A DNA stretch of 64,000 nucleotides, from IMG/VR virus record IMGVR_UViG_3300028173_000001. The stretch is one strand, 5' to 3'. Shown here in pieces: positions 39,315-56,638 of this stretch. Below the pieces are notes generated by a model. That model ran no database searches. It was not told the DNA's origin and worked only from the letters and a program-made list of their open reading frames with translations. Every line of letters starts with the position of its first letter. Position 1 is the stretch's first letter. Both the position numbers and the translations under genes were made by a program. The stretch is from an uncultured virus (IMG/VR IMGVR_UViG_3300028173_000001) (Duplodnaviria > Heunggongvirae > Uroviricota > Caudoviricetes).

Positions 39315-41246
39315 ATGAGTGAAATCAAAGGGTCGTTATTTACCCGACTAACAAAATTGTTCAGATCAGGTCCGGTCGTTAGACGCCGCGTAAAGAACGT
39401 ATCAGGTCCGAGTTCATCGACATCGCTAGAAACTTTCCGCAAAGTACACAGCAACGTTTATAACAGCACGTTGTCGGCATACGGTTCCTACGACAGAATG
39501 AGCAGATACAGCGATTTCTCAGAAATGGAGGCAACACCAGAGATTGGCTCCGCGCTCGACATCTATGCTGAAGAAACCGCGAGCTGTGACGACAAGGGAA
39601 AGGTCCTCCACATCTATTCTGAGAACAACAGGATTCAGGAAATCCTTGGCGAGCTCTTCTACGATATTCTGAACGTGGATTTCAACTTGACAATGTGGGT
39701 CCGCAATCTCTGCAAGTACGGCGACTTTTTCATTTTCAACGACATTTCTCCAGAATTCGGCATTGTAAATGCATACCCAATTGCAATCAGCGAAATTGAA
39801 AGAGAGGAAGGCTTTGATCCTGAAGATCCAATGGCTGTCCGGTTCCGCTGGATTACACAAGGGAATCAAATCCTCGAAAAATGGCAGGTCTCTCACTTTA
39901 GATTGCTTGGTAATGATGCATTCTTGCCGTACGGTTCGTCTGTCCTAGAGTCAGCGCGTCGTATTTGGCGTCAACTGATTCTCATGGAAGACGCCATGCT
40001 TGTCTACAGGATCATTCGTGCTCCTGAACGCCGAGTTTTCTACATTGATGTGGGTAACATTCCACCGAATGAAATCGAGAACTTCATGGAAGGCGCCGTC
40101 TCGAGCCTGAAGCGCCAGCCTGCAATCGATAAGAATAACGGCAAGATGGATTACCGCTACAACCCATACAGCGTTGATGAGGATTATTTCCTGCCAGTTC
40201 GAGGCCAAGAATCAGGAACAAGGATCGACACCTTAGCCGGAGGTTCCAACGCAGCAGCAATTGAGGATGTTGAATACATCCAGAAGAAACTGTTTTCCGC
40301 ACTGAAAATCCCGAGAGCATATCTTGGATATGATGAGGATGTGGGCTCCAAAGCGACACTGGCAATGGAAGACATCAGGTTTAGTCGTACAATTGCAAAA
40401 ATCCAGAAGACTATCATTGCCGAATTCAATACCCTGGCAATGATTCACCTTTACTGTCACGGGTTTGCCGAGGAAGATTTGGCCGACTTCGATTTGAAAT
40501 TGACAAACCCAAGCTCGGTTGCTCAACAACAGAAGTTAGAGCTGATTCGAACTCGATTTGATATCGCCAATAGCGCTCCAGAAAGTGTTGTTGATAGGAA
40601 TTACGTCAGGCGTGATGTGTTCGGCTTGACACCAACACAAATTGCAGAAATCAAAGCGGGCCGGATTGCAGATAAACTTGAGGATATGGAGGTCGAAGCA
40701 GCTGGCGAACCAGCCGATGATGCACCCGCCGCCGGCGGTGATGAGATGATGGATGACGGTCCGGCAGACAGCGCTGACGACCTATTCGCTGGTGATAAGC
40801 CAGGCGGTTCATTATTAACTGCACTTCCCGGGACGGGAAACGAGTTTGAGCTTGAAAGTGATGAAGACGATGACCGACTGAATTTATCAATTGATGACAT
40901 CGACGCCCCTGAAAAGGCCGCAAAGAAAATCAAAAATGCTTTTGGTGGACCGATCAAGCCAAACAGAAAAGTCAAAGGTGGTGCTGAGCAGACACACATG
41001 CCCGATTTTGGAAAGATGGTGAGTGTAGGTAAAGCAGGGCGTTCACAGGATTCGCTAAATAAACCATTCGATGCAGAGTCGTTGTTCAACCTAGGCGAGT
41101 CCGAAGGAAGAAATTCAATTATGGCACCAAAAATGACACGAAGTTTAGAAAGAATGTTCACGTCAATGGGAAACTCGATAAGTAGTAATAGGACGGAACT
41201 TTTATCTGAAGATCTGTTGAATGAGAATTTGAACACAGGGGATTGA
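39315..41246 (+). CDS. Portal protein (T4 gp20-like)
   Basis: MEDAMLVYRIIRAPERRVFYIDVGN, EDYFLPVRG, IDTLAGG, IEDVEYIQKKLFSALKIP. Confidence 0.93.
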   Translation: MSEIKGSLFTRLTKLFRSGPVVRRRVKNVSGPSSSTSLETFRKVHSNVYNSTLSAYGSYDRMSRYSDFSEMEATPEIGSALDIYAEETASCDDKGKVLHIYSENNRIQEILGELFYDILNVDFNLTMWVRNLCKYGDFFIFNDISPEFGIVNAYPIAISEIEREEGFDPEDPMAVRFRWITQGNQILEKWQVSHFRLLGNDAFLPYGSSVLESARRIWRQLILMEDAMLVYRIIRAPERRVFYIDVGNIPPNEIENFMEGAVSSLKRQPAIDKNNGKMDYRYNPYSVDEDYFLPVRGQESGTRIDTLAGGSNAAAIEDVEYIQKKLFSALKIPRAYLGYDEDVGSKATLAMEDIRFSRTIAKIQKTIIAEFNTLAMIHLYCHGFAEEDLADFDLKLTNPSSVAQQQKLELIRTRFDIANSAPESVVDRNYVRRDVFGLTPTQIAEIKAGRIADKLEDMEVEAAGEPADDAPAAGGDEMMDDGPADSADDLFAGDKPGGSLLTALPGTGNEFELESDEDDDRLNLSIDDIDAPEKAAKKIKNAFGGPIKPNRKVKGGAEQTHMPDFGKMVSVGKAGRSQDSLNKPFDAESLFNLGESEGRNSIMAPKMTRSLERMFTSMGNSISSNRTELLSEDLLNENLNTGD

Positions 41247-42085
41247 TCATAATGACAAAGCACAACAAAAAACGCAATGTCGGTCTAATACACGAGCAGC
41301 TGATTAGATACGTTGCCAGCTCGCTAATAGCGCGCGACAAGAAATCAGCAGAGAAAGCAATTGCGATTATTACGAAGCATTTTAAGCAAGACTCTGAGCT
41401 CTTCCGAGAGTTTAGGCTCTTCAATGCGTTGGTGAACCTCCCTGTCGGCTCTCGGAGCTTGGCTGAACGTATTTTGCTCGAGAGCAAGAAATCAGCAATA
41501 ACTCACAGCTCGCAAAAACTTCGGAAAGAGAAATCAAATCTGATCAAGGACATAAACCACGGCCTTTCACAATCAGCACGATTTTACGACATTAAGATCG
41601 AAAGTTATAGATTGTATGCAACAGTCCAGACGATGCTCAATGAGTGGCGAGGCATGGATTCTCTTTCATTGACGAATAAGGCAAAATACGAAGAACAAAT
41701 TGTTGAGCACCTGGCACGCACGTCGACTGCTGTTTTGAAAGAAACATTCGAAGCAGACCCGCTTGTTCGTAAGCTGATGTTCCAGAAATTCGAAGAAAAA
41801 TATAAAGAGCACCTGAGCACACAACAGCAGGCCGTTTTGGAATCAGCGATCCTTGGCGACGAAAACAATTTCAGTACAATCATTTGCGAGATTAAGAAGA
41901 AAGCTCTCATAACTGTCAATGAGTTCAAAAAAACGTGTGACAATAACGTCCTACTCGAAAAAATCGATAACGTAAAAACTAGAATCGAAAGGCTGTCAGA
42001 GGCAAAATCTGATGATACGGTGGCGAAAACACTACACTTGGTTCACCTACTCGAGGAAATGGAGATTAAAAATGAGCAAAAGTAG
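41243..42085 (+). CDS. Hypothetical head-morphogenesis protein
   Basis: Lies between portal and protease; KHNKKRNVGLIHEQL N-terminus. Confidence 0.55.
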   Translation: MIIMTKHNKKRNVGLIHEQLIRYVASSLIARDKKSAEKAIAIITKHFKQDSELFREFRLFNALVNLPVGSRSLAERILLESKKSAITHSSQKLRKEKSNLIKDINHGLSQSARFYDIKIESYRLYATVQTMLNEWRGMDSLSLTNKAKYEEQIVEHLARTSTAVLKETFEADPLVRKLMFQKFEEKYKEHLSTQQQAVLESAILGDENNFSTIICEIKKKALITVNEFKKTCDNNVLLEKIDNVKTRIERLSEAKSDDTVAKTLHLVHLLEEMEIKNEQK

Positions 42086-42677
42086 AAACCTGTTAACAGA
42101 ATGGCTGAAGTTCGATTATACAGCAGATCAAATCAAGGAAAGCCGTGAACAGCACGGCGGTAAGATTGTGATGAAGGGTATTCTGCAAAAAGCAGACACC
42201 TTGAACCAAAACGGCCGCGTGTACCCAGAGTCAATTCTTTCCCGTGAGGTGAGAAACTATCAGAAGTTTATTAAAGAGAACCGTGCCCTCGGCGAATGCG
42301 ATCATCCTGATTCATCTGTTGTAGAGCTAAAAAATTCGTCGCATATCATTCGTAAGGCGTGGATGGACGGCAAAACATGTTTCGGTCTAGTCGAATTGCT
42401 AGACACGCCAAGCGGAAAGATCCTGCAAAGTCTTGTAGAATCGGGTGTAACATTAGGCATCTCTTCACGCGGCGTTGGATCAACAAGTAGAGAGGGTGAT
42501 TATGATGTTGTCCAGGACGACTTCCAACTAATTTGTTGGGACTTCGTTAGTGAGCCCTCAACACCGGGCGCATTTATGATGAAAGAAGGCCGCGACTTTA
42601 CAAGGGCGGATCTAAACCGTCACTTTACGAAATCAGACCGAATCGATAGAGTCTTCAATGACATTTTGGAGTGGTAA
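42072..42677 (+). CDS. Prohead protease (T4 gp21-like)
   Basis: NQNGRVYP, ALGECDHP, TPSGKIL, GISSRGVGS, DFVSEPSTPGA. Confidence 0.92.
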   Translation: MSKSRNLLTEWLKFDYTADQIKESREQHGGKIVMKGILQKADTLNQNGRVYPESILSREVRNYQKFIKENRALGECDHPDSSVVELKNSSHIIRKAWMDGKTCFGLVELLDTPSGKILQSLVESGVTLGISSRGVGSTSREGDYDVVQDDFQLICWDFVSEPSTPGAFMMKEGRDFTRADLNRHFTKSDRIDRVFNDILEW

Positions 42678-43082
42678 ATGAGTCAACAATATGCACCGCC
42701 TGGCCACGGAATGGTCAGCGAATATCAGGCAGCCGGAGTACCGTTTGTCAGCTCATCAGCATCTATGGTGGACACAGCTCCACAAAAGTTCACGTTTCCA
42801 TACGTGGCAAGGCACGTCACGATTTTCAATTCGGGTTCAACACCCGTTCGTGTTGGGTTTACTGAAAACGGTGTCAATGCAAACCCAACTGAATCAAACT
42901 ATTTTTTGGTCTTGGCGATGAGTAACACACCACGTCTTGAATTAAAGTGCGATGAAGTCTTCGTAAGAAAAGACGCCGGAACAGACCCAAACATTGTGTC
43001 AATTGTCGCCGGTTTAACAACAATACCCCGCAAGAACTTCTTTACAATGTCAGGTTCAAACGGTGTCGTAGGAGTAGGATAA
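42678..43082 (+). CDS. Hypothetical head-associated protein
   Basis: 134-aa beta-rich ORF abutting the protease gene. Confidence 0.5.
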   Translation: MSQQYAPPGHGMVSEYQAAGVPFVSSSASMVDTAPQKFTFPYVARHVTIFNSGSTPVRVGFTENGVNANPTESNYFLVLAMSNTPRLELKCDEVFVRKDAGTDPNIVSIVAGLTTIPRKNFFTMSGSNGVVGVG

Positions 43083-43654
43083 TGGCAAAAATGACAAAGG
43101 CGTCGTTGAAGGGTCTCATCAAGGAATGCCTCGTTGAACTTCTAAGTGAGGGGCTCGGCGTTCCGCAGCAAAGTCTAACTGAGGGCTCACGTCGCCGAGA
43201 ACCTGTGCAAGAATTGCGACGCCCACAACGCCAACAGCGGCGTCAACCAAAACGTCAGCAGAAAAGAACATCCATTTTTGATCAAATGGACGAGTCTTTC
43301 CAGCAACGTTTTGGTGGAAATGATACCACATCAAACTTGGCAACGATGGCAACCGATGATGTGATGCTTCAAAGTATTTTGAATGAGACGGCGAATACAA
43401 CGTACCGCGAACGAATGAAACACGAAACAAATGTGCCGTCGGTCCCTCGGATGTCAGCACCATCTTTGCCGGGCCCTCGAGATGCATATGGCATGGTCCA
43501 GGAAAACATGCCGGAGGCAGCGTATACAAGGCGGCCTCAACCTCCTGTTCAACACCAGGCTGCCGCCGGTCTTGACATCAATGCGTTGTTTGGTGATGCC
43601 GCGGCGAATTGGAGCGAAGTTTTAGAGCGTTCGACGACTAAAAAACTTCCATAA
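43082..43654 (+). CDS. Hypothetical protein with leader MTKASLKGLIKECLVELLSE
   Basis: Leader resembles the MKITE family; low-complexity body. Confidence 0.5.
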   Translation: MAKMTKASLKGLIKECLVELLSEGLGVPQQSLTEGSRRREPVQELRRPQRQQRRQPKRQQKRTSIFDQMDESFQQRFGGNDTTSNLATMATDDVMLQSILNETANTTYRERMKHETNVPSVPRMSAPSLPGPRDAYGMVQENMPEAAYTRRPQPPVQHQAAAGLDINALFGDAAANWSEVLERSTTKKLP

Positions 43655-43694
43655 GCATATTTAGACAAGAGCCCACAAGGCGAAGGAGAATTTT

Positions 43695-43973
43695 ATGGCA
43701 AAGAGAGTACGACGAATTACACCTGGCTTCCTGAAGAAGATTATCATTCAAGAGGCTAGGAAACTAAAACTAGAAACGATCGAGCAGGGCAAGAAGGAAG
43801 CAGAAGATGTCAATGCTGACGAAGTTGATGCTGACGCACTGGCCGGTACGCTTGAGCAGGATCTTGACTTTATCAAGGCACTGAAGATCAAGGAAGCAAA
43901 GATGGTTCGCGGTCTCAAGCGATTGCGCGAGCAGAAATCAAAGTTGCGTCGTCGAATTGGTCGCCGAATCTAA
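43695..43973 (+). CDS. Small head-core-like protein
   Basis: AAGGAG RBS, late motif at 43657; LKKIIIQEARK leader. Confidence 0.55.
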   Translation: MAKRVRRITPGFLKKIIIQEARKLKLETIEQGKKEAEDVNADEVDADALAGTLEQDLDFIKALKIKEAKMVRGLKRLREQKSKLRRRIGRRI

Positions 43974-44002
43974 GAACTTGGTTAAGCTAGAAGGGGAATA
44001 TC

Positions 44003-44578
44003 ATGGCGATTGAAGTCATTAAAAAATCAGAGCAGGTTACTATCGAGCCCGACAAGAAGTTGGGATATCGTGGAAACCTAAACACGGAAGGTGCAATGGG
44101 CAAAGCAAACGCTACAGCTCTAACATCTATTTTTAAGGGCTCTCCACTTCCAGGTTACTCCCCAACGAAAATCAAGGTCGGCGGCGAGAAGGATGATATT
44201 GATACTTCGGATGCTGCGGCATACCGAAAGTGGTTCATCAACAACGTCGTGAAAGGAAATGTCAACGATGAGGCTTACGGTCTCGGACAATTCCATCTTG
44301 ACTATAATGATAAGACAACAAACCTTCCTGACATGAATGGCGTAAAGACGGGTGCCGCTGGTCTTCCGGCAACACCTTTCGTTCCCAACCCTGTTTCTCC
44401 TGGTGAAGGAAGTGTCAACCCATCTACAATGGCCGCAGCCCCAGAAGGATTCGTTAACAAGCAGACACCAAGTGCACCATTCTCCGGTGCTAGCGTTTCG
44501 CTACCATCTGATGGAACGAAAGCTGAGCCTGCACGAAACCCAACCAACACCGCTAAGCAGATAAAAGATCGTCTATAG
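44003..44578 (+). CDS. Hypothetical protein
   Basis: AGGGG RBS; in the head operon. Confidence 0.55.
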   Translation: MAIEVIKKSEQVTIEPDKKLGYRGNLNTEGAMGKANATALTSIFKGSPLPGYSPTKIKVGGEKDDIDTSDAAAYRKWFINNVVKGNVNDEAYGLGQFHLDYNDKTTNLPDMNGVKTGAAGLPATPFVPNPVSPGEGSVNPSTMAAAPEGFVNKQTPSAPFSGASVSLPSDGTKAEPARNPTNTAKQIKDRL

Positions 44579-44591
44579 ACAATCGGAATAG

Positions 44592-45110
44592 TTGATAAAA
44601 ATGATTATTGACAAACTCCACGAAGCAATGTCGAAACCCGACGCCAGAACCGGCTTGGGCTTCGGCATGCTTGAACCCCAATTTCATGACGAGAAAGAAT
44701 CTGGCTCATCATTTCCATACGTTGAAGATGATCCTTACAAAGACGCACCTGACGCAGACGAATTAGACGTCGACGCTGTTACAAATAAGGGTGCCGGGTT
44801 TATCCCATCAGACAGTTTTCACATCAGCTCCCGCCCGAATCCATACTATTTTTCTGAAGGCACAGATAGCTTGTGTGGCTGCTTCTGGGATTGTGAACAG
44901 GTTATCATTGAGATGGCAAACTATGATGCTGGCGTGAGTGCTAGTGGCGGTGTGGCTGGTTCTAATTACAAACGGACAGGGTCATTGAGGGGTTGGGCAT
45001 CAGCTCCACCGGAATCATTTCCTGCAGCAGAAGAAAATTCTGATGATTTTGAAAATGAAGAGCATATTTATTCAGTGCAAGATTTGGTAAAAAATGAAGA
45101 CGAAAGTTAG
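44592..45110 (+). CDS. Acidic hypothetical protein
   Basis: 172-aa ORF in the head operon. Confidence 0.5.
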   Translation: MIKMIIDKLHEAMSKPDARTGLGFGMLEPQFHDEKESGSSFPYVEDDPYKDAPDADELDVDAVTNKGAGFIPSDSFHISSRPNPYYFSEGTDSLCGCFWDCEQVIIEMANYDAGVSASGGVAGSNYKRTGSLRGWASAPPESFPAAEENSDDFENEEHIYSVQDLVKNEDES

Positions 45111-45151
45111 TTTTCCAAAGTTACCGAATACTTAGTTGCAAGAGGTTATGG

Positions 45152-46894
45152 ATGTCAACAGTATATGACGAAGCATTGCTAGACGCGCGAAAGATTCGAG
45201 ACGCAGCCGAACAGGCTGCACAGGCTCGAATTATGGAAACGATAACTCCGCAAATCAGGGAAATGATCAACAACAGAATCTTGTTCGAACAAGACGAAGT
45301 TGATGATGATGATTCTGATGAAGACGGCGACGGCGCGATGGGCGGAATGGAAGACGATTACGATCTAGAATCCATGCTCGACGGAATGCCAGATGTCGGA
45401 GTTGATTTCGAAGATGCTGCGTCGCAAGAGGCAGTCACGCAGGCAGGTTCTGTTTCAGTTCACGCCGCAGGCGACGTAAACATTAACGTATCAGAGTCAC
45501 ACGACGAAATGATGCTAGGTGAAGCCGGCGCAAACGTTCTTGCTTCCCTTATTAATAAGGACTTCGTCGCCCCACGCCGTCTTGAAGAAAAAATCGACGC
45601 CCTATCGAAGCGAGTTAAGAAACTCGGCGATGTGGTGAGCGTGCTCCGAGAGAGCAAACTATCAACCGTTAAAAGAAAACGATTAGAACTGGGTTTTATG
45701 TCATGTGTTAAGGACGCTGTGTCCTTGCAGAATGAAGTAAAATTGAGTGGAACGGGTCATCGGCGCCTTCATGCAAAGCTGAATTCTACCATTAAGGAGA
45801 TGAGAGAAATGTCAAGTAAATACAAAAAGAACATTTTCGACTTTCTTTTCGAGGGCGATGCCGCTGAATCGAAGAAGAAAGATGCGGACGACGCCGTGAA
45901 CGAGCAGGAAGAAACTGGAGAGGACGTTGAGGTTCTTGATGGTGGGCTCGAGGATTCGGGCGAAGAGCTTGATTTGGATGTCGAAGAAGAAGGCGTCCCA
46001 ACAGGCGATGTTGACGTCGACGCTGCAACTGCTGCGCTACAGAGTCTAGGCTCTGCTCTTGGTCTTGACCTTGAGATTGCTGGCGAAGGTGGTGACGAAA
46101 TGGACTATGAGGAAGGTGGCGAAGAAGGGTTCGACGATGTCGAAGAATTGGACGTTGACCTTGAGGAGTCTGCATGGAGCGGACTGAAAGAGTCTGACGA
46201 CTTGGATGAAGTATACGAAATCGATGAGTCGGTTCTTCGTAAGGAGCTTTCACGCATGAGAAATGGTAATGGTCGCAAGATCCGAGAGTCACGTGGTCGT
46301 TCAAAACTACGCCGAATGGTTCGCGAAGCCGCTGAAGATGAGGCCGACCAGTTTGGTGATGGCAAGATTCTCGGTGACGTGATTGAAATCGATGAAGACA
46401 CACTGATCAACGTCCTAGCGGATGAGCTTGGTAGTGTTGCTGAAAGTCGTCGACGACGAGCTGGTCGTCGTCGAGTTGCTGAAGGTCGAGGGCGACGTCC
46501 AGCTCGCCCATCGCGAGGCCACTCACGTGCTATGAAAGAAGCAAAGACATACAAAACAGCGGCAACCAAGTTGAAGAAACAACTGGTTGAAATGAACATG
46601 TTCAACGCGAAGCTCTTGTTTGCTAACAAGTTGCTCCAGAACAAGGGTCTAACCGTAAAACAACAGCGAGCAATTGTTGAGGCGATCGATAATGCCAAGA
46701 CGCTCCGTGAGGCAAAACTGCTTTACAAATCACTCTCCGAGTCACTCACTCGTAGGGGCCAAGGTGGCAACATGCTGAGTGAAGGAAAAAGGACTCTCGG
46801 GTCGTCTTCCAGATCAACCCGGTCAGGACAACCTGCCAAAAGTGGCGTTGATGCAGGTCGATGGGCAGTCCTAGCAGGTCTTCCCGGCAAATAA
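45152..46894 (+). CDS. Prohead core/scaffolding protein
   Basis: Directly upstream of MCP; acidic middle; EMNMFNAKLLFANKL, LREAKLLYKSL, C-terminal RWAVLAG. Confidence 0.8.
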   Translation: MSTVYDEALLDARKIRDAAEQAAQARIMETITPQIREMINNRILFEQDEVDDDDSDEDGDGAMGGMEDDYDLESMLDGMPDVGVDFEDAASQEAVTQAGSVSVHAAGDVNINVSESHDEMMLGEAGANVLASLINKDFVAPRRLEEKIDALSKRVKKLGDVVSVLRESKLSTVKRKRLELGFMSCVKDAVSLQNEVKLSGTGHRRLHAKLNSTIKEMREMSSKYKKNIFDFLFEGDAAESKKKDADDAVNEQEETGEDVEVLDGGLEDSGEELDLDVEEEGVPTGDVDVDAATAALQSLGSALGLDLEIAGEGGDEMDYEEGGEEGFDDVEELDVDLEESAWSGLKESDDLDEVYEIDESVLRKELSRMRNGNGRKIRESRGRSKLRRMVREAAEDEADQFGDGKILGDVIEIDEDTLINVLADELGSVAESRRRRAGRRRVAEGRGRRPARPSRGHSRAMKEAKTYKTAATKLKKQLVEMNMFNAKLLFANKLLQNKGLTVKQQRAIVEAIDNAKTLREAKLLYKSLSESLTRRGQGGNMLSEGKRTLGSSSRSTRSGQPAKSGVDAGRWAVLAGLPGK

Positions 46895-46945: not shown

Positions 46946-48844
46946 ATGTCTACATTTAATCTAGAAATGCTAACCGAGGGGATTCAAAAACGTCACGTCG
47001 GCTCGCAAAACAAACTACTCATCGAGAAGTGGAACCGTACTGGTCTTCTTCGCGGCCTTGACGGCACGAAACGAGAGAACATGGCGCGCTTGCTCGAAAG
47101 TCAGGCTGGCCAGGTTATCAAGGAAGCATCATCGATTTCGACCGGTGGCGCTAACGGAACCTCGTCTGGTGACCTTCGTGGTTTCACAAACATCGCATTC
47201 CCATTGGTTCGCCGAGTCTTCGGTGGATTGATTGCGAACGACCTTGTTTCGATCCAGCCAATGAGCCTTCCTTCCGGACTGCTCTTCTACATGGACTACA
47301 CCTACGGTGGAAACATGGCAGGTTCGGTCGGCGCGGCGACACCTTATTCTTCAGGTTCGTCAATTTACAACAGCCCAGCGGGTAAAGGCGTTCAGTCTGG
47401 TTCGCAGGGCGTTGGTGGTCAGTACGACCTTGCTGGCTCGGGTTACTCTCGAGTTTACGGTGTGACTGCTGCAGTTTCATTGTCGGCATCAGGTGCTTTC
47501 GGTTCCGGAACAGTGTTCAGCAATGCTAAAACATTGGCTGCAACAGGTTCTGACGGCAAGTTGCTTCAGTACGACCCGCAAATCACAAACGCAATCGAGA
47601 ACAACGCGGCACCAGTTGGTGGCGGACCGGGTGCTCTTACAGGTTCTGCTGTATATCACGCACTCGTGGTTTCGTTGGCTTCAGGTGGTACGCTCTTCGG
47701 TGATGCTGACCTTACGTTGTCTAAGGACTTCTCGTTGGCTCCAGTGGCCCCATACAAGGTTGTTGGAAACGACACCAATGGTAACGCAATCCAGGGTGGT
47801 AGCACAGCTAACATCCGTCGATTGAACCAGATGGGAACCTGGGACGGCACAAACTTCACGCCTAACGGCTTGGTCAAGGCAGGCGATGCTAACGCAGCGC
47901 TCTTGATGATTGTGTCTGGTGCTAACCAGGGCGGCCTCGCTGCTCCTGCAACCGTGCTTGCTAAGCCATTGGCTGCTGCACTCGATTCGGCTGCAAACAC
48001 TGGTGATACGTTGGTCATTCCTTCGTTCGAGTCTGACTTCGCGGTCGACCCATCACCTGCAATCCCAGAAATCGACATCAAGATCGAGTCAATCGCTGTT
48101 GTGGCTGAGACTCGTAAGTTGCGTGCCCGCTGGTCGCCAGAAATGGCACAGGACCTGAACGCTTACCACAGCCTTGACGCTGAGGTTGAGCTGACACACA
48201 TCCTGTCCGAGCAGATCGCAATGGAGCTTGACCGAGAGATCTTGAATGACTTGCTGACACAGGCTGGAGCTGCGCGCTTCTACTGGTCACGTAGCCCAGG
48301 TAAGTTCCTCAACAAGCAGACTGGTATCGAAGTCAACCGTACAAACTCGTTGACACCTGGCCCGGCATTCACCGGTACAGTTCGAGAGTGGTACGAGACT
48401 CTTATCGAGACCATCATCGACGTTGCTAACGAGATTCATCGTAAGACGCTACGTGGTTCGGCTAACTTCATCGTTGTCGGCCCGGATGTTGCAACAATCT
48501 TCGAGTCTTCAATCCTGTACAAGCCAAGCTTCTCGCTTGACGCTGACGGACAGGTTGGCCCGATGGTTATCGGTGCTGAGAAGGTTGGTACCCTGTCGAA
48601 TCGATTCTCGGTTTACAAGGACCCTTACTTCCCACGCAACCAGATTCTGGTTGGATACAAGGGCGGAAGCTACCTGGAGACAGGATACGTCTACGCTCCT
48701 TACGTCCCGCTGATCGTGACTCCTACCATCTTCGCACCGGAAGACTTCACTCCTCGAAAGGGCGTGATGACTCGGTACGGTAAGAAAATGGTCCGTAACG
48801 ATTTCTACGGAACTGTGACATGTCTTGACATGAACGTTATCTAG
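46946..48844 (+). CDS. Major capsid protein (T4 gp23-like)
   Basis: FPLVRRVFG, IQPMSLPSGLLFY, TRKLRARWSPEMAQDLNAYH, YAPYVPL, PRKGVMTRYG. Confidence 0.95.
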   Translation: MSTFNLEMLTEGIQKRHVGSQNKLLIEKWNRTGLLRGLDGTKRENMARLLESQAGQVIKEASSISTGGANGTSSGDLRGFTNIAFPLVRRVFGGLIANDLVSIQPMSLPSGLLFYMDYTYGGNMAGSVGAATPYSSGSSIYNSPAGKGVQSGSQGVGGQYDLAGSGYSRVYGVTAAVSLSASGAFGSGTVFSNAKTLAATGSDGKLLQYDPQITNAIENNAAPVGGGPGALTGSAVYHALVVSLASGGTLFGDADLTLSKDFSLAPVAPYKVVGNDTNGNAIQGGSTANIRRLNQMGTWDGTNFTPNGLVKAGDANAALLMIVSGANQGGLAAPATVLAKPLAAALDSAANTGDTLVIPSFESDFAVDPSPAIPEIDIKIESIAVVAETRKLRARWSPEMAQDLNAYHSLDAEVELTHILSEQIAMELDREILNDLLTQAGAARFYWSRSPGKFLNKQTGIEVNRTNSLTPGPAFTGTVREWYETLIETIIDVANEIHRKTLRGSANFIVVGPDVATIFESSILYKPSFSLDADGQVGPMVIGAEKVGTLSNRFSVYKDPYFPRNQILVGYKGGSYLETGYVYAPYVPLIVTPTIFAPEDFTPRKGVMTRYGKKMVRNDFYGTVTCLDMNVI

Positions 48845-48850
48845 GTTGAC

Positions 48851-48910
48851 CATCTAGTTACCACTAGATGATTGGAAAGGCGCCCCCACAAAGGGCGCCT
48901 TTTCCTTTTT
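48851..48910 (+). terminator. Small hairpin plus intrinsic terminator after MCP
   Basis: CATCTAGT/ACTAGATG hairpin, then AAAGGCGCCC/GGGCGCCTTT stem followed by a T-rich tract. Confidence 0.8.
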
Positions 48911-48958
48911 AACCATCTTTTTCCTATACAATTCATTCATTTCCTATATATTTATTGT

Positions 48959-49954
48959 ATGATGGAAAAACAAATAGAAAAAGTAAAGTGCAAGTACTGC
49001 GACAAGATGTTGAGAAATACGCCGAGATCCGTCGGTGCTCATGTTGGTTATTGGCATAAGGATATCGCAAAAGAGATTTATGCAAAACCTGTCGTCGAGT
49101 TCACAATAAAGTGTAAGATTTGCGACGAGCTTGTTGCAAATTCAAACAATGTTCTTGCTCGTCACGTAAGAAAAGAGCATAAAATTGAATGGCCGGCATA
49201 TCAAGTTCGTACAGAACATAACAACATCTGGCCGGTATGCAAGTGCGGCTGCAATACGAAACTCAAATGGGCGAAGGGCGGGTTTCCTGAATATCTTCGT
49301 GGACACAGTAACAAAGGCAAAAATAATGGAATGTATGGAAAACGAGGAGCCGACAGTCCAAACTTTGGAAAGGTAAGAACATCTGAGCAAAAAGAGCGTT
49401 ACAGTAAGGCGGCTCAAAAAAGGTGGGACGAGGATTATGATAAAAGGGTTGAGGTGCTAAGAACTGACGAGTACCGTGAGAAGCAAAGACTTGCCGGCCA
49501 TAAAACCGCCGCAAGGCAGGATGTAAAGAAGAAGAAATCAGTTGCATCAAAACGTTGGTGGCAAAACAATCCAGAAATGAAAAAAGTATACAGCGAACGT
49601 GCCATCCAGTTGCTAGAGGACGGCGTCATCGGGCCGCAGGCGCCATTCAAGACCGAGTGGAAGTTCAACCCGTTCACACAGCAAGAAGAATACATGCACT
49701 CCGGGTGGGAGTCCCGTTTCCTGGACGAATGTGTATCTCGGGGCGAGCCAGTCACCAAGAAACACGACATCCGCATCCCATACAAAGACCCAAACGGCGT
49801 CGAGCGAACCTATGTCCCAGACTTCCTATCACTCTCAGGTTCAATGCTTTACGAAGTCAAAGGTCAGGAAAATGACAACGACCCATTGAAATATCAAGCG
49901 GCAATCGATTGGAGCTTTCAGAACGATAAGGAATTTTGTGTGATTCGATTCTAA
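48959..49954 (+). CDS. Homing-type endonuclease (TnsA-like PD-(D/E)xK domain, C2H2-type Zn fingers)
   Basis: CKYC..H...H, CKIC..HVRKEH, CKCGC, MHSGWE, TYVPDF, YEVKG. Confidence 0.75.
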   Translation: MMEKQIEKVKCKYCDKMLRNTPRSVGAHVGYWHKDIAKEIYAKPVVEFTIKCKICDELVANSNNVLARHVRKEHKIEWPAYQVRTEHNNIWPVCKCGCNTKLKWAKGGFPEYLRGHSNKGKNNGMYGKRGADSPNFGKVRTSEQKERYSKAAQKRWDEDYDKRVEVLRTDEYREKQRLAGHKTAARQDVKKKKSVASKRWWQNNPEMKKVYSERAIQLLEDGVIGPQAPFKTEWKFNPFTQQEEYMHSGWESRFLDECVSRGEPVTKKHDIRIPYKDPNGVERTYVPDFLSLSGSMLYEVKGQENDNDPLKYQAAIDWSFQNDKEFCVIRF

Positions 49955-49986: not shown

Positions 49987-50238
49987 ATGAAAATCACAAA
50001 ATCAAATCTCAGGAAACTCATCAGAGAGCAAAAACATTCGCGTCGTGATCTCTGGATAACGCTCCACAATCTCGCGCCATCACCAGGCATAATCCCATGG
50101 GCCGAAGCGGAACATGAAACAGGTCATAGCAAGGATGAGATAATGAACTACATTCAGTCTGAGGCCGACGATTCTGATTTGTACTGGATGGACTACAATG
50201 CTGAGGGTCTCGATCTTGATGACCCAATGTCTGTGTGA
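49987..50238 (+). CDS. MKIT-leader protein 1
   Basis: MKITKSNLRKLIREQ; AGGGG RBS. Confidence 0.7.
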   Translation: MKITKSNLRKLIREQKHSRRDLWITLHNLAPSPGIIPWAEAEHETGHSKDEIMNYIQSEADDSDLYWMDYNAEGLDLDDPMSV

Positions 50239-50239
50239 C

Positions 50240-50304
50240 TGGCTAGCTTCGGTTAGCTAAACGTTTGAAGGGCTCCTGGAGAAATCTGGGAGCCCTTCGT
50301 CTTT
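50240..50304 (+). terminator. cUUCGg hairpin plus GC-rich stem-loop, probable terminator
   Basis: TGGCTAGC-TTCG-GTTAGCTA, then GAAGGGCTCC/GGAGCCCTTC followed by GTCTTT. Confidence 0.6.
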
Positions 50305-50307
50305 GGC

Positions 50308-50336
50308 ATGTAATATTCGTGTATGTGTGGTATAAT
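50308..50336 (+). promoter_or_regulatory. Sigma70-like promoter ATGTAA-N17-TATAAT
   Basis: Matches the GTGTAA-N17-TATAAT family with extended -10. Confidence 0.55.
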
Positions 50337-50391
50337 ATTTATGTAATTTCGGGTGCAATTAGATATTTAGTGATACATATACGAGGCACAA

Positions 50392-50607
50392 ATGAAAATC
50401 ACAGAATCAGAACTCAGAAAACTGATAAAAGAATCGCACGTCTCAGACTGGGGCCAAAATGAAACATCAGATTTCACTTGGGATCATGAGATGGACAGGG
50501 CACTGGAGTTCCTAAAGCGCGCCGAGGTTATTCTGGCTTCCATCGGTCATGAAATCGGAGCCGATGCTGTTCGTAGTGCGATCGACACCGCGGTGGAGAA
50601 CCAATGA
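50392..50607 (+). CDS. MKIT-leader protein 2
   Basis: MKITESELRKLIKES. Confidence 0.7.
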   Translation: MKITESELRKLIKESHVSDWGQNETSDFTWDHEMDRALEFLKRAEVILASIGHEIGADAVRSAIDTAVENQ

Positions 50608-50846
50608 AAATCACAGAAACACAGCTCAGGAAACTAATCCGAGAGCAAGCTGAAGGCAAAACCGATCGGGCAGAACAGCTATTCAATCAGTTAGGCCCAG
50701 ACGAACAAAAAGCCATCGAAAGCCTGTTGGGAAAGAAAGAGTTTTGTCAAGCAATTGCGAAAGAGCTCGCGACACACGGTGAACAAGTTGGGAAGCTGCC
50801 TGTCATTCGGGCGATTGCCCTGACCCTGATAGGAAGGTCACAATGA
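50604..50846 (+). CDS. MKIT-leader protein 3
   Basis: MKITETQLRKLIREQ; ATGA overlap. Confidence 0.7.
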   Translation: MKITETQLRKLIREQAEGKTDRAEQLFNQLGPDEQKAIESLLGKKEFCQAIAKELATHGEQVGKLPVIRAIALTLIGRSQ

Positions 50847-51322
50847 AAATCACCGAATCACAACTAAAAATTGTCGTGAAGAAGCTGCTATCTGAGCAAT
50901 CATCGCGAAAGAGGTACATCACTGTTTCTGACAGTTTTAATAGTCGTACGCGTTTGGAAGTAACGGAAAAACAGCTCGCTGCGATCAAAGCGGGAATCCC
51001 TGGAGGAAACGGACGATCGACTGATGTTGATGACACTGTTCCTGGAATGGCGACCCGTGTTTCATGGTCGAAGACACTGCGGAATTTCTTTGACTGGCAA
51101 CTGGTGGAAGCGATGGAGGCGTTAGGTTTCAAACACTCAGGTGCTTCGGATGACCATCATCCCGCCGGAAACTGGACTAAATCGAAACATACATGGACGG
51201 ATTCCTCCGGCAATTCTTGGTCATTGGCTCGCTTTTCTGGGAATAGAACGACGTATGAGACAGTCCTTACATTTGCAGAACCGGTTGTAGCGACAAGAAA
51301 ATACAAAGGTAGGCATCAATGA
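50843..51322 (+). CDS. MKIT-leader protein 4
   Basis: MKITESQLKIVVKKLLSEQ; ATGA overlap. Confidence 0.7.
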   Translation: MKITESQLKIVVKKLLSEQSSRKRYITVSDSFNSRTRLEVTEKQLAAIKAGIPGGNGRSTDVDDTVPGMATRVSWSKTLRNFFDWQLVEAMEALGFKHSGASDDHHPAGNWTKSKHTWTDSSGNSWSLARFSGNRTTYETVLTFAEPVVATRKYKGRHQ

Positions 51323-51561
51323 AAATCACAGAATCTCAACTCAGGAAGCTGGTAAAAGAAACCTCCTCAAACGAAAAAGCTCGACTAGTTAGTGAGGCGA
51401 TACAAAGTCTCGGCAGTGCAATATGGAAACTAGAAGAAGCAGGACACTATCAGGCCGCGACGATTGTTGATAAATGTATTCAAGCAGTTCGTCGATCTGT
51501 GGCCGGCAGACGAAGAGACGGCCAACAAAGCCAAAACACGGTGTACCAGGATTACGAATGA
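51319..51561 (+). CDS. MKIT-leader protein 5
   Basis: MKITESQLRKLVKET; ATGA overlap. Confidence 0.7.
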   Translation: MKITESQLRKLVKETSSNEKARLVSEAIQSLGSAIWKLEEAGHYQAATIVDKCIQAVRRSVAGRRRDGQQSQNTVYQDYE

Positions 51562-51911
51562 AAATCACAGAATCCAAACTCAGGCATCTCATTCGGGAAT
51601 CCTTAGGTGGAAACAAAACGGAGGCCTGGCTCAGGTTTATGTCTGGTGAACTCTGGATGGAAACGCTGACACCGGAAGATTTGAAGACGATGGGCTACAA
51701 ACCATACAAGTCATATGTAAGGGTTTCCCCGCCGGCCCGTTTCCCATCAGAAGATTACGCTGATGAAAGCTTAATGAACATCGATTTTAGCCACAATGAC
51801 AGCCCGGGAACGAAAGAAGAATTCGTTCAGTTCATGGCAGCAAACGCAGGTAAGGGGATGCTAAATAAGCGTGCACCCAGGAAATACACCCACTTAGATT
51901 TCGTAACATAA
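51558..51911 (+). CDS. MKIT-leader protein 6
   Basis: MKITESKLRHLIRESL; ATGA overlap places the start at 51558. Confidence 0.7.
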   Translation: MKITESKLRHLIRESLGGNKTEAWLRFMSGELWMETLTPEDLKTMGYKPYKSYVRVSPPARFPSEDYADESLMNIDFSHNDSPGTKEEFVQFMAANAGKGMLNKRAPRKYTHLDFVT

Positions 51912-52926: not shown

Positions 52927-53352
52927 ATGACAGCAAGAGATTTTGCATACTGGCTCCAGGGATTCTTTGAAATCTCTGATACGGACGACGTAAAACCAGA
53001 ACAGGTACGAATGATAAAGGCACACCTAGCGTTGGTCTTGACAAAGGTAACACCGACAATGGAGGAGCTCAAAGGGGAGCCCAAAGTCGATTACCCACCA
53101 TGGCAACCAGCAAGAAAAGTAATCGACCCAATGCCATACCCATTCAAAGATGAGCGCGTGGTTTGCTCATCTGTCGGTGGACCACCCGGACTAAAGCTAA
53201 CGAAAGCAGGCACATTACCGATAGGAGAGGTCGCGTCGGCATATGGTGAAGCACTTGCAAACAAGACGCTTGCAGATCTTCATACGCAGCTCAAAACCCC
53301 GATCGGGAAATACGATGTCGACCCAGGAATAAAATGTCAGCTAACATGCTAA
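52927..53352 (+). CDS. Phage hypothetical protein (FxYWLQGFFE-type N-terminus)
   Basis: MTARDFAYWLQGFFEIS...IKAHLALV; AGGAG RBS. Confidence 0.6.
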   Translation: MTARDFAYWLQGFFEISDTDDVKPEQVRMIKAHLALVLTKVTPTMEELKGEPKVDYPPWQPARKVIDPMPYPFKDERVVCSSVGGPPGLKLTKAGTLPIGEVASAYGEALANKTLADLHTQLKTPIGKYDVDPGIKCQLTC

Positions 53353-54023
53353 ATGAATCTAACAATGACGATGTTACTGTGACACCCGCCGTGTTAAGTC
53401 AGCATCACCAGCATCTCATCAGTAAGTGGAGTCACACCCAAATCCTGGACAACCTGTCTCAGGAAAAAGCTCTCAATTACGCAATCCTTTTTGAGAATCA
53501 ATCGAAACTAATTCTGCGCGAAATTGAAGATATGCATTCCCGACATCGTTCGTGTCCAAGAACGTGGAATCAGGAAGCGTTCAACCTGGCCCAACAAAAT
53601 GTGTTTCCGCTTATCAGGCGAGTTTTTGACGGCGTCGATTTTGAATGGAAAGCAATGGAGACCCCATATGAAGAAGGTGTGGGCTGCGCAGAAACATCAA
53701 GGTTGAGGACAAAATTCTCTCTGACTGATTATGAGCACCGAGTTCAATCTGAAGAATTCAGTCGCATGGACGGGCTTACTGTTTGGTTTGACATCATGGT
53801 TGGCCAATTCATCGAAGAGTTCAACAACATCGTGCTTGTTGATAAAGCATCGATGGCACAATACAAGAATTATGATGGGCCGGTGGTGAGGCATATTCAC
53901 ACCCCATTCCTGGCTGCAAGCAACTCTTATGGCGACCGTATCCCACCGAACAGGCGCAACAAAACCTACGGCACCATGTGGCGCGGAAAAACTGTTCCTG
54001 CAAAGAAAGTTGGGCCCGTGTAA
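53334..54023 (+). CDS. MCP-derived protein (N-terminal/spine-helix part, large insertion absent)
   Basis: LISKW, LFENQ, VFPLIRRVFDG, AETSRLRTKFS align colinearly with MCP LIEKW, LLESQ, AFPLVRRVFGG, AETRKLRARWS. Confidence 0.75.
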   Translation: MSANMLNESNNDDVTVTPAVLSQHHQHLISKWSHTQILDNLSQEKALNYAILFENQSKLILREIEDMHSRHRSCPRTWNQEAFNLAQQNVFPLIRRVFDGVDFEWKAMETPYEEGVGCAETSRLRTKFSLTDYEHRVQSEEFSRMDGLTVWFDIMVGQFIEEFNNIVLVDKASMAQYKNYDGPVVRHIHTPFLAASNSYGDRIPPNRRNKTYGTMWRGKTVPAKKVGPV

Positions 54024-54098: not shown

Positions 54099-54338
54099 AT
54101 GAAGATTACAGAAAACCAGCTACGTAATGTTATCCGCCACGAAAAATCAAAACTGGCAGAAATGAAAAGTCCAGATGGTCGTTTTCAAACAAGCAACTTC
54201 TTTGCGGAAGATCTAAAAACATTGATTACGGGCGGACTGTCGACCGGTCTGTCATATTCCGACATAGAAGAAGAATTCAGATACGCCCTGCAGCAAGTTC
54301 GGGATGATGGATACGAGCAATCACACGATGCATACTAG
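54099..54338 (+). CDS. MKIT-leader protein 7
   Basis: MKITENQLRNVIRHEKSKLAE; GGAG RBS. Confidence 0.7.
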   Translation: MKITENQLRNVIRHEKSKLAEMKSPDGRFQTSNFFAEDLKTLITGGLSTGLSYSDIEEEFRYALQQVRDDGYEQSHDAY

Positions 54339-54412
54339 GCAGCTTCTTTACATTACGCTTAGGTAACCTACCAATGGCGTGTTTAGGGCGTACAGGAAAG
54401 GACACAGGTATC

Positions 54413-54727
54413 ATGAAAATAACAGAAAACCAATTACGGAAAGCAATCCGTAAAGAAAAATCAAAAATGAGCGAAGGACGCGTCGGCAAACGAGCGCTAG
54501 CCATGCACACCCCCATTGAAACACGATCTGCACTTGAATATCAGGTTGAGAATTTTCTTGAAATTGTAATGGCCGATGCGGCTGATGAGTTGGGTGATGA
54601 TGAGGGTGGCGAATTCGCTGAACTTGCCTTGCTAGAAGTAGTCGCGGGGCCAGCAGATACGCTAGGTTATCTTACCCTTGCCAGGGAGCTAAGGGCAATT
54701 GAAACAAAACGGTACTCGCATTACTAA
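54413..54727 (+). CDS. MKIT-leader protein 8
   Basis: MKITENQLRKAIRKEKSKMSE. Confidence 0.7.
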   Translation: MKITENQLRKAIRKEKSKMSEGRVGKRALAMHTPIETRSALEYQVENFLEIVMADAADELGDDEGGEFAELALLEVVAGPADTLGYLTLARELRAIETKRYSHY

Positions 54728-56131: not shown

Positions 56132-56638
56132 ATGATAAAACCATATCCGACACCAGACCCAGCAGTTATGCGCAAAATTCTTGATGGAAGCCGACCGCCT
56201 GACTACGTGACATATTGGCATCGAATGCCGGGAAGGTATGTCTTAAAAGAGACAGGTGAGGATTGCGCCGACGAGGAGGCACGCCCATTGTTTTATGGAA
56301 CTGTGACAGAGTGGTATTCGATTTTGGCCGAGGCTGTCCACGACGCATGGCGGAAAATAACAGACAACGGTATAACAGGGATGACATCGGGAATCATTGT
56401 TTCACGTGATATTCAAAATGTCCTTGAGGCAACGCATTGGTTTCGCGGAATATACCATCATTGCAGTTGCTGCACGGCGAAAACAGAATGGCCAGTGATC
56501 GGGACTTTAGACGGGATTCCTGTTTATGCCAGCGATGAAGTGGGAAACAAGGTTGTTGTGTTTATGACGGGTTGCGATAAATGCGATCTTGAAGCCACTG
56601 CGGAGATTAGAATTAAAGGAATGGACAGGATCATCTAA
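56132..56638 (+). CDS. MCP-derived protein (A-domain-like region)
   Basis: YWHRMPGRYVLKETG, FYGTVTEWYSIL, IIVSRDIQNVLE, IGTL align with MCP YWSRSPGKFLNKQTG, FTGTVREWYETL, IVVGPDVATIFE, VGTL. Confidence 0.75.
   Translation: MIKPYPTPDPAVMRKILDGSRPPDYVTYWHRMPGRYVLKETGEDCADEEARPLFYGTVTEWYSILAEAVHDAWRKITDNGITGMTSGIIVSRDIQNVLEATHWFRGIYHHCSCCTAKTEWPVIGTLDGIPVYASDEVGNKVVVFMTGCDKCDLEATAEIRIKGMDRII

Follow-up and report, generated by a model that had tools for sequence, protein, structure and literature searches.

To our knowledge, the full-size vertex protein gp24 is the only paralogue of the major capsid protein (MCP) known in T4-type phages. What, then, is a 229-residue protein made of parts of the MCP doing in the genome of a T4-like phage? 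The question is raised by an open reading frame at positions 53334–54023 (+ strand) of the window, the 64,000-nucleotide stretch of DNA analysed here. The ORF list, BLASTP, hhalign, AF2 modelling and dN/dS together confirmed that it is an intact paralogue of the MCP gene at 46946–48844 of the same 318-kb uncultured marine T4-like phage. We refer to its product as mini-gp23. The gene starts with an ATG, with AGGA 5 nt upstream, and this start overlaps by 19 nt the stop of the preceding ORF (52927–53352, + strand, 141 residues; ORF list, PHROG 28500), to which mini-gp23 is translationally coupled. No cultured phage carries mini-gp23, and the gene is known here from sequence computation alone.

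Sequence relation to the major capsid protein

The parent gene (46946–48844, + strand) encodes a gp23-type MCP of 632 residues (Pfam Gp23, 1.3e-77; PHROG 138; T4 gp23 chains, E = 1e-29) with a large insertion at about residues 115–365. BLASTP against this MCP aligns residues 21–101 of mini-gp23 with MCP residues 18–95 (30% identity, E = 3e-10). A profile match to gp23-type MCPs, on which the preliminary description had staked its proposal, was found with hhalign (34-member family profile against an 18-MCP profile, probability 99.3%, E = 2.3e-20); it spans residues 23–112 of mini-gp23 and 20–114 of the MCP, AMETP/PMSLP included. A profile restricted to the family residues that follow P111 matches every one of the 18 MCPs (search set of about 2,600 sequences, E = 1.4e-11 to 4.3e-5) at MCP 381–434, where the spine helix and CAETSRLRTKFS/VAETRKLRARWS are located. 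This post-P111 profile gives a second, weak match at MCP 585–614, colinear in all 18 MCPs, with individually non-significant values (i-E 16–250). When the MCP is aligned to the family model with hmmalign, the N-terminal part only is covered, where 21 of the 69 residues aligned are the same as in the MCP, and the segments beyond it rest on the post-P111 profile search. Taken together, BLASTP, hhalign and the post-P111 profile establish that the six colinear matches to the MCP originally put forward are all real and above chance.

Mini-gp23 has diverged from the MCP. The mini-gp23 ORF has no Pfam match at E ≤ 0.01 and does not reach the gathering score of the Gp23 model (PF07068), which weakly matches one of the 34 family members (E = 0.005); a PHROG search likewise gave no match for the ORF itself. 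Where mini-gp23 and the MCP have a residue in common, the third codon positions have been randomised (for example, 1/8 and 4/7 identical), and the copy is therefore old rather than a recent DNA duplication. The most conserved positions of the two families coincide: K31, W32, T35, L38, E54 and N55 are nearly invariant in the mini-gp23 family, and they fall on K28, W29, L35, E51 and Q53, which are invariant in the MCPs.

The two families also differ at the site where the MCP is expected to be processed. A T4-type prohead protease (Peptidase_S77; Pfam, PHROG) is encoded at 42012–42677 (+ strand) and is expected to cut at [LI]xE sites, and the predicted maturation site of the MCP, from motif counts, is QVIKE↓A, after E60. 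An [LIVM]xE motif is present at this site in 15/18 MCPs, compared with 4/34 mini-gp23 family members. The mini-gp23 studied here has LRE (residues 60–62) at the equivalent offset, but its 75%-identical orthologue P0003 does not.

Retained and missing parts of the HK97 fold

Mini-gp23 is a conserved, selectively maintained paralogue of the MCP reduced to propeptide-like helices, an N-arm, a spine helix and a four-stranded P-domain sheet. The propeptide-like module and N-arm (53400–53669, + strand; residues 23–112, equivalent to MCP 20–114) consist of three helices (residues 23–33, 43–69 and 80–100) and the first strand, and have the motifs KW..T..L, L[LF]ENQ, FPLIRRVF and WKAMETP in common with the MCP. 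They are followed by CAETSRLRTKFS, which forms a strand, and by a short helix and then the long spine helix (53685–53864, + strand; residues 118–177, equivalent to MCP 381–434), and then by two long strands (53883–53999, + strand; residues 184–222) that correspond to the last P-domain strands of the MCP (585–614), as indicated by the weak colinear match in 18/18 MCPs, the family motifs VxFYxP and GLATRY, and the strands of the predicted model.

Two large parts of the MCP are missing. As first described, the MCP segment that follows PMSLP is replaced by a few residues: the E-loop tip and insertion domain (MCP ~115–380, about 265 residues) give way to about five residues between positions 112 and 118 of mini-gp23. 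The C-terminal region, on the other hand, had wrongly been reported as absent. Its last P-domain strands are kept, and the missing part is the A domain (MCP ~435–584, about 145 residues), replaced by 15 residues (169–183) that lead from the spine helix to the next strand. The A domain is needed for the centres of capsomers in the HK97 fold. As mini-gp23 has neither an A domain nor an E-loop/insertion domain, it should, judging from this fold, be unable to form capsomers, which upholds the assembly incompetence suggested at the outset; without hexamers or pentamers, it is presumably not a shell subunit.

The structure prediction and HK97 superposition that had been suggested agree with this partition. 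An AF2 model computed from 34 sequences is confident (pLDDT 87, pTM 0.83, with pLDDT 96–97 for the N-terminal helices), whereas one computed from four sequences was poor (pLDDT 52). The confident model shows an HK97 P-domain-like core made of a 31-residue helix and four strands. A VIA-align search of 48,161 chains returned T4 gp24 (PDB entry 1YUE) as the best match (Z = 7.2, r.m.s.d. 3.8, 134 aligned residues), and the best 37 matches listed (Z = 3.3–7.2) are all, by title, HK97-fold capsid or encapsulin entries. These matches were recovered by VIA-align only, at middling Z; Foldseek against the PDB and BFVD gave nothing at E ≤ 1e-3 for the model, and the ESM Atlas search gave no usable match.

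Compared with T4-type gp23 (PF07068; PDB entries 5VF3, 6UZC and 7VRT), mini-gp23 is thus colinear in the N-terminal module, the N-arm, the base strand of the E-loop, the spine helix and the last P-domain strands, and its model matches the P-domain fold, but it is without the E-loop tip, the insertion domain and the A domain and has 229 residues against the 632 of the MCP in the window. T4 gp24 is also a gp23 paralogue without an insertion domain, and the mini-gp23 family profile matches it weakly (E = 0.029). Unlike mini-gp23, however, gp24 keeps the A domain; according to the T4 annotation it forms pentamers in the shell and is cut by gp21.

Distribution and selection

In metagenomes, a further 31 cluster representatives (50% identity) of 160–220 residues have the same architecture as mini-gp23. 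Neither Pfam nor PHROG has an entry dedicated to this family; tblastn with three of its members found none in 50,697 GenBank phage records, a search of prokaryote genome contigs found nothing, and a full-text literature search found no published description. A four-sequence alignment of the C-terminal part retrieved nothing from viral contigs and a single 1.5-kb metagenome contig. Among 12 T4-like viral records searched, three carry mini-gp23, two of which are sister phages; the nine records without it are 30–89% complete. L010, at 100% identity, is the same phage and was not counted as independent.

The preliminary description of the ORF as diverged but intact holds good: the frame is full, and comparison with the sister phage gives a dN/dS of 0.11 (pN 0.148, pS 0.646, with saturated synonymous sites), indicating purifying selection. 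The neighbouring genes give similar values (0.07–0.16). Mini-gp23 evolves faster than the true structural proteins, with 75% identity between the sister phages, compared with 92–98%. Its sequence is identical in contigs of four runs from different studies.

Genomic neighbourhood

On one side of mini-gp23 is the head module (protease, MCP) and on the other are the neck/tail-sheath genes, all on the same strand; candidates for the scaffold are encoded at 43082–46894. A strong terminator is predicted 3′ of the MCP gene, and co-transcription of mini-gp23 with the MCP is therefore not implied. We considered the PHROG-28500-like ORF immediately upstream as a specific partner and rejected it, because the related proteins are hypothetical ones, found here and there in Pseudomonas and Caulobacter phages; a homologue of this ORF adjoins a different MCP-piece gene in another phage.

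Eight small genes sharing an N-terminal tag flank mini-gp23, and a ninth is found further upstream. Six of them stand in tandem (49987–51911, + strand; starting at 49987, 50392, 50604, 50843, 51319 and 51558) and begin with MKIT[EK]..L[RK]..[IV][RK]E; two more with the same tag are directly downstream of mini-gp23 (54099–54727, + strand; genes 54099–54338 and 54413–54727). The tag ends in [LIV]xE and matches the predicted cleavage site of the MCP, and it is also borne by ORF 43082 of the head module. Mini-gp23 itself starts with MSANMLNES, without the MKIT[EK]..LR..I[KR]E tag of its neighbours.

The genome contains other pieces of the MCP. An A-domain-only paralogue of 168 residues is encoded 2.1 kb downstream of mini-gp23 (56132–56638, + strand; phmmer match to MCP 445–524, E = 5.2e-9) and covers the MCP part that mini-gp23 is missing; it is 85% identical to its counterpart in the sister phage, with a dN/dS of 0.09. 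There are two mini-gp23 genes and two A-domain-only genes in this genome, the second A-domain-only copy being elsewhere and the second mini-gp23/A-domain pair about 94 kb apart. Besides the mini-gp23 studied here, the genome has six genes derived from other MCP pieces. One of these pieces is the stretch equivalent to T4 Gol, whose homologue in another phage (G006; 176 kb, 97% complete) has a RecA/UvsX-like gene on one side and an RNase H-type (5′–3′ exonuclease family) gene on the other.

The genomic context of mini-gp23 is drawn from three genomes only, namely G000, its sister phage and G006. The G006 member is 90 kb from the MCP gene, among small ORFs and cell-wall-enzyme-like genes. There is no tag-gene cluster near this copy, which rules out the cluster as a general companion of mini-gp23.

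Possible functions of mini-gp23

We may wonder at this stage what a capsid protein that should not build a capsid could be for. Our leading explanation, held tentatively, is that mini-gp23 may be a non-shell head-assembly accessory that docks through its MCP-type N-terminal module. Docking through this module is proposed because the residues most strictly common with the MCPs fall within it (KW..TGLL / LLENQ). In T4 gp23 the same module is part of the propeptide, which head maturation cleaves off, and it faces the scaffolding core. Mini-gp23 would use it to dock onto the partner of the nascent MCP, either the scaffold core or the prohead protease. From there it would become part of the prohead under assembly, or influence it, in the role of a minor head protein outside the lattice or of an assembly modulator. 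Since most family members do not have the protease motif of the MCP, it would remain whole rather than be trimmed as the MCP is. A T4 precedent is described in PMC5694885: short N-terminal capsid-targeting sequences send internal head proteins to the core and are removed by the prohead protease. The T4 internal head proteins and Alt could thus be functional analogues, entering the prohead via an N-terminal docking element, but they have no sequence relation to mini-gp23, which would dock by the N-terminal module of the MCP itself; the CTS-like tag is found on the genes that flank mini-gp23 and not on mini-gp23 itself.

Among the structural matches to mini-gp23 is PDB entry 7RWZ (Z = 4.3), which from its title we take to be the capsid-size-redirecting MCP homologue Ccm of SaPIbov5 and hence a precedent for an assembly-modulating relative of an MCP. 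Ccm, however, has a full HK97 fold and is satellite-encoded, whereas mini-gp23 is domain-deleted and encoded by the phage itself. T4 Inh and the gp68 core protein were also considered as relatives and were discarded (hhalign of the family profile, E = 0.28 and E = 0.27, respectively). In weighing the head-accessory role, we counted in its favour the MCP homology, the fold, the shared invariant residues, selection, the local context, the tag genes and the T4 precedent, and against it the G006 location, the patchiness, the motif loss, the faster evolution and the terminator after the MCP gene.

Nearly as likely, although doubtful in itself, is that mini-gp23 acts as a soluble look-alike of the MCP, staying in the cytoplasm, competing for binders of newly made MCP and never entering the head. 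Its target would be a host defence protein that senses capsids, for instance Lit or CapRel, for which it would serve as a sponge or as the decoy proposed in the preliminary description, or else EF-Tu, a chaperonin or a similar host factor, and it would protect or tune MCP production. Several of the observations above suit this role: the patchy, accessory-like distribution (3/12 records), the non-structural location of the G006 member, the loss of the protease motif in 30/34 family members, the evolution faster than that of structural genes, and the six further MCP-piece genes, including the Gol-equivalent one with its G006 homologue. The T4 Gol residues, presumably gp23 93–122, have an equivalent in mini-gp23 of which half is conserved: FPLIRRVF is kept, but the second half reads FEWKAMETPYE in place of VSIQPMSLPSG. 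A mimic that retains the trigger motif would moreover be expected to trigger the sensor rather than block it. In T4, the first quarter of gp23, of which mini-gp23 holds a homologue, is reported to bind EF-Tu, and the Gol region to trigger the Lit protease (PMC3014915); around mini-gp23, however, no Lit-like context and no defence or anti-defence genes are seen. A dN/dS of 0.11 without sign of an arms race also speaks against this role, as does the head–neck position among putative head-targeted genes in this genome.

A broader and rather unlikely version of this idea is that the genomes of large marine T4-like phages supply a whole set of domain-sized MCP look-alikes acting as soluble mimics of the nascent MCP. 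The set would consist of mini-gp23, the A-domain-only proteins and small proteins whose final part is the Gol-equivalent stretch or other strands of the MCP. Such mimics would either intercept host immune systems that sense capsids or hijack a host factor that binds the first quarter of the MCP (EF-Tu in T4). If true, this would be an undescribed strategy of counter-defence or host takeover through self-mimicry of a structural protein.

It is improbable that mini-gp23 and the A-domain protein at 56132–56638 pair non-covalently into an insertion-less HK97-fold subunit, for example a specialised vertex or portal-proximal one. The A-domain ORF does supply MCP 445–524, absent from mini-gp23; the genome has two genes of each kind, one A-domain gene is only 2.1 kb downstream, and both genes are kept under purifying selection in the sister phage. 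Yet the members of the second pair are far apart, and mini-gp23 modelled alone folds as a compact unit (pTM 0.83). In addition, searches of G006 with the MCP and the MCP profile gave no A-domain-only ORF at E ≤ 1, although this phage does carry a mini-gp23; the family therefore does without a partner of that kind.

Equally little credence can be given to a dominant-negative inhibitor of co-infecting T4-like phages, which would spoil the lattice of a foreign MCP by co-assembling with that MCP or capping it. In favour of this role, mini-gp23 keeps the N-arm and P-domain elements that make inter-subunit contacts in HK97-fold shells, and its distribution is accessory-like. But its identity to the MCP of its own phage is only about 30%, and it is no closer to other MCPs, which leaves selectivity for foreign MCPs unexplained. 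Finally, a functionless, decaying remnant of an MCP duplication, which the internal deletions and the absence of Pfam and PHROG matches for the ORF might evoke and which had been named beforehand as the outcome that would undo the proposal, is hardly credible, because the dN/dS of 0.11, with saturated synonymous sites, and the architecture shared by 31 further representatives contradict neutral decay, and the frame is intact, the predicted fold confident and the sequence identical in contigs of four runs.

Whichever reading applies, the family offers a handle on what the conserved N-terminus of gp23 binds and on how capsid-derived modules are reused. Of the HK97 fold it comprises the half made of N-arm and P domain, joined to what is putatively the MCP's N-terminal docking module, and the other half is present as a separate gene, with several smaller MCP-piece genes, in the same genome. 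Mini-gp23 may belong to a new class of minor factors of the head or its assembly, it may be one part of a split capsid subunit, or it may mimic the phage's own MCP so as to engage host sensors or EF-Tu.

Lastly, a scan for promoter-like sites found 12, compared with 14.8 expected, which is not above chance, and TATAAATA was counted three times, compared with 0.9 expected.

Genomic setting

The window corresponds to the minus strand of positions 137686–201685 of a 318,267 bp IMG/VR virus record (estimated completeness 93%), from a phage whose DNA is present in 20 seawater/marine metagenome runs from 15 studies, four of these runs being possible sources of the record. According to Pfam and PHROG, the plus strand of the window carries a T4-type head module: the large terminase (37664–39262), the portal (39315–41246; Portal_T4, 8.5e-75), the prohead protease (42012–42677; Peptidase_S77) and the major capsid protein (MCP; 632 residues, 46946–48844), with neck and tail-sheath genes from 58491 onwards. 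The Pfam Gp23 match to the MCP (1.3e-77) falls in two stretches, which points to a large insertion. This insertion (residues 115–365, approximately) is unusually long, at about 250 residues, is rich in Gly, Ala and Ser, and is not part of the consensus of 18 MCPs. The closest MCPs of GenBank phages are less than 50% identical (an uncultured 484 kb phage, Flavobacterium phage immuto, Microcystis phage Mel-JY01 and Rhodothermus phage RM378). The MCP gene is directly followed by an endonuclease-like ORF with zinc-finger motifs (48872–49954; PHROG 15427/655), which is 49% identical to a counterpart of unequal length in a sister phage; in T4, segD likewise comes after gene 23. A terminator with a 12 bp stem (48874–48904), immediately 3′ of the MCP stop codon, lies within the listed TTG start region of this ORF, the true start of which is therefore probably further downstream.

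A shortened paralogue of the MCP

The mini-gp23 ORF (53334–54023, plus strand) encodes 229 residues. A plausible ribosome-binding site precedes it, and its 5′ end shares 19 nt with the upstream ORF; neither Pfam nor PHROG gives a match for it. As the preliminary description had proposed, it is intact and colinear with the MCP of the same phage: residues 21–101 align with MCP 18–95 (30% identity, BLASTP E = 3e-10) and residues 23–112 with MCP 20–114 (profile comparison, E = 2.3e-20). A profile of the family part after P111 matches all 18 MCPs tested (E = 1.4e-11 to 4.3e-5) at MCP 381–434, namely the strand AETRKLRARWS and the spine helix, and is also colinear in all 18 with MCP 585–614, each of these latter matches being non-significant when taken singly. 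From these three colinear matches, mini-gp23 can be written as MCP(20–114) + MCP(381–434) + MCP(about 585–614). The loss of a long MCP segment is thereby borne out, the E-loop tip and insertion domain (roughly 265 residues) being reduced to about five residues. On the other hand, the C-terminal region had wrongly been described as missing: the terminal P-domain strands are kept, and it is the A domain (roughly 145 residues) that is absent, replaced by 15 residues. Third-codon positions are random at the residues common to mini-gp23 and the MCP, so the copy is ancient.

The AlphaFold2 model of mini-gp23, built with the 34-row family alignment A2, has a pLDDT of 87 and a pTM of 0.83. It comprises helices 23–33, 43–69 and 80–100, strands 104–107 and 120–129, a short helix, a 31-residue helix (147–177) and strands 184–195 and 211–222. 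Foldseek gave no significant match for this model. In a VIA-align search (all against representatives) the best match is T4 gp24 (1yue_A; r.m.s.d. 3.8, 134 aligned, model residues 57–229), with a Z of 7.2, middling by the tool's own note, as are the values of 3.6–5.1 for the following 29 rows, all capsid or encapsulin entries. A second comparison placed the T4 unexpanded head on top (7vrt, Z 5.4), ranks 1–37 being capsids and encapsulins. These structural matches and the sequence homology together suggest that mini-gp23 has an HK97 P-domain core.

Family and selection

When 1.84 billion cluster representatives were searched with a profile, 80 matched at E ≤ 1e-3. We took as family the 31 with 160–220 residues and a match reaching well past the N-terminal module; the other 49 were MCP-sized, very short or matched over about the first 80 profile positions only (the match spans about 110–120 positions in the excluded short P0039 and P0060). 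A2 contains these 31 representatives, the window ORF, its orthologue P0003 (75% identical) and a second paralogue encoded elsewhere by the window phage (genome 303567–304097, 176 residues). The family shares the motifs KWxxTGLLxxL, LLENQA, FPxIRRVF, WDVxxxP, TxKLxTRF, LDAEVExT...ELN, VxFYxP and GLATRY, and occurs in marine metagenomes (Tara samples among them), on contigs of at most 196 kb. Neither Pfam nor PHROG has a model dedicated to it (Pfam Gp23 touches one of the 34 rows and PHROG 138 four), and no copy was found in 50,697 GenBank phage records (tblastn with three members as queries) or in the prokaryote genome contigs scanned. Directly 3′ of the family member P0011, a 46-residue ORF (L048:1046–1186) repeats LKWGKLLGGL...LLENQ and then stops; it represents either a broken or frameshifted second copy or else a variant of very small size.

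The sister phage (L009) has a 92% identical MCP and is syntenic from protease to sheath. Compared with it, dN/dS (Nei–Gojobori) is 0.11 for mini-gp23 (pN 0.148, pS 0.646, with a dS of 1.48 that is near saturation), 0.09 for an A-domain ORF (56132–56638), 0.13 for the MCP and 0.015 for the neck gene. L010 is the window phage itself (100% identity) and adds no independent data. Between the two phages mini-gp23 is 75% identical, as against 92–98% for the structural proteins. Mini-gp23 is an old, conserved MCP paralogue under purifying selection, cut to the N-terminal module, N-arm and P domain. A decaying remnant of an MCP duplicate is excluded for practical purposes by this conservation.

Protease motif and tag genes

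Prohead proteases of the T4 type follow the cleavage rule [LI]xE. The MCP motif fits this rule: [LIVM]xE occurs at +5 to +7 after LLENQ in 15 of 18 MCPs, mostly as LISE↓A (QVIKE↓A in the window MCP), and at the same offset in four of the 34 mini-gp23 family members. The window protein has LRE there; P0003 does not have the motif. Most of the family thus appears to have lost the predicted MCP maturation site, and the N-terminal helices would then probably be a permanent part of the mini-gp23 fold, in agreement with their modelled pLDDT of 96–97. T4 cleavage sites are mentioned in PMC5694885.

Mini-gp23 is located within the largest cluster of a tag-gene family. The tag MK[IV]T[EK]xxL[RK]xL[IV][RK]E opens at least 16 ORFs genome-wide; nine tag ORFs flank mini-gp23 on both sides (49987–51911 and 54099–54727), one further is 2.3 kb away from the second paralogue, and the head-module ORF 43082–43654 begins with MAKMTKASLKGLIKE, similar to the tag. 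In the genome-wide list, 15 of 17 tag-bearing ORFs have [LIV]xE within their first 18 residues, like the predicted MCP cleavage site. By analogy with the T4 capsid-targeting sequences described in PMC5694885, the tag is a putative head-targeting propeptide.

Possible functions

The strictest residues common to the family and the MCPs fall in the N-terminal module. In T4 gp23 the corresponding module faces the scaffold and is cut off during head maturation, a location that favours docking to the MCP's own partner. We tentatively favour a role in which mini-gp23, presumably unable to form capsomers, would dock onto this partner during head assembly and act as a minor or internal head protein or as a modulator.

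Nearly as likely is a soluble MCP look-alike, of which the immune decoy suggested in the preliminary description is one form. The loss of the protease motif in most members and the other MCP-piece genes of the genome would agree with it, as would a patchy distribution, mini-gp23 being found in three of 12 T4-like viral records. Among ten other such records searched with the family profile, it is present in that of the sister phage (G011); the remaining nine (30–89% complete) have the MCP only. The context in a second, separate phage, G006 (176 kb, 97% complete), points the same way: its member P0009 (about 27.3–27.9 kb) is 90 kb from the MCP (117969–119804), surrounded by small ORFs and by genes of peptidoglycan-binding and L,D-transpeptidase-like types, with no tag-gene cluster nearby. 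G006 also has a 113-residue ORF (L061:1318–1659), flanked by a RecA/UvsX-like gene and a gene of the RNase H type (5′–3′ exonuclease family); the end of this ORF is equivalent to MCP 82–121 (Pfam Gp23, 31 bits) and corresponds to the Gol-region stretch of T4 gp23 (residues 93–122). Next comes a PHROG-28500-like ORF, a relative of which lies directly upstream of mini-gp23 in the window. According to PMC3014915 (section 37), the first quarter of T4 gp23 binds EF-Tu and its Gol region triggers Lit. Mini-gp23, however, keeps the Gol-equivalent stretch in its first half only. That mini-gp23 and the product of the A-domain ORF 56132–56638 form a two-piece capsid subunit is improbable, if conceivable in the window phage, and is not general, since G006, which carries a mini-gp23, gave no ORF of the A-domain-only type at E ≤ 1.

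Additional MCP-piece ORFs

All 2,608 ORFs of at least 40 residues were searched with phmmer and the MCP profile; besides the two mini-gp23 genes, the following ORFs emerged. Two A-domain-only paralogues, window 56132–56638 (168 residues; MCP 445–524, E = 5e-9; 85% identical to its sister-phage counterpart) and genome 209348–209836 (L049:2001–2489; 162 residues; MCP 432–530, E = 1e-10), are 27% identical to each other and share a GCxxC motif. Genome ORF 86383–86721 (L050; 112 residues) ends with MCP 570–595 (E = 9e-6); 14 of its last 23 residues are identical to this stretch and the remainder is unrelated to the MCP. The last 28 residues of ORF 103223–103549 (108 residues) correspond to MCP 94–121 (profile E = 3e-6), and ORF 101899–102357 (152 residues) is a borderline match (E = 9e-3) to a strand, the spine helix and the PRKG strand. 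Synonymous sites in the MCP-piece ORFs are randomised relative to the MCP. Between the last two ORFs (G000:C1:101899–103549, L006) lies a gene for a ClpP-like protease (Pfam CLP_protease, 1.9e-24); together, these two ORFs resemble a mini-gp23 interrupted by inserted genes.
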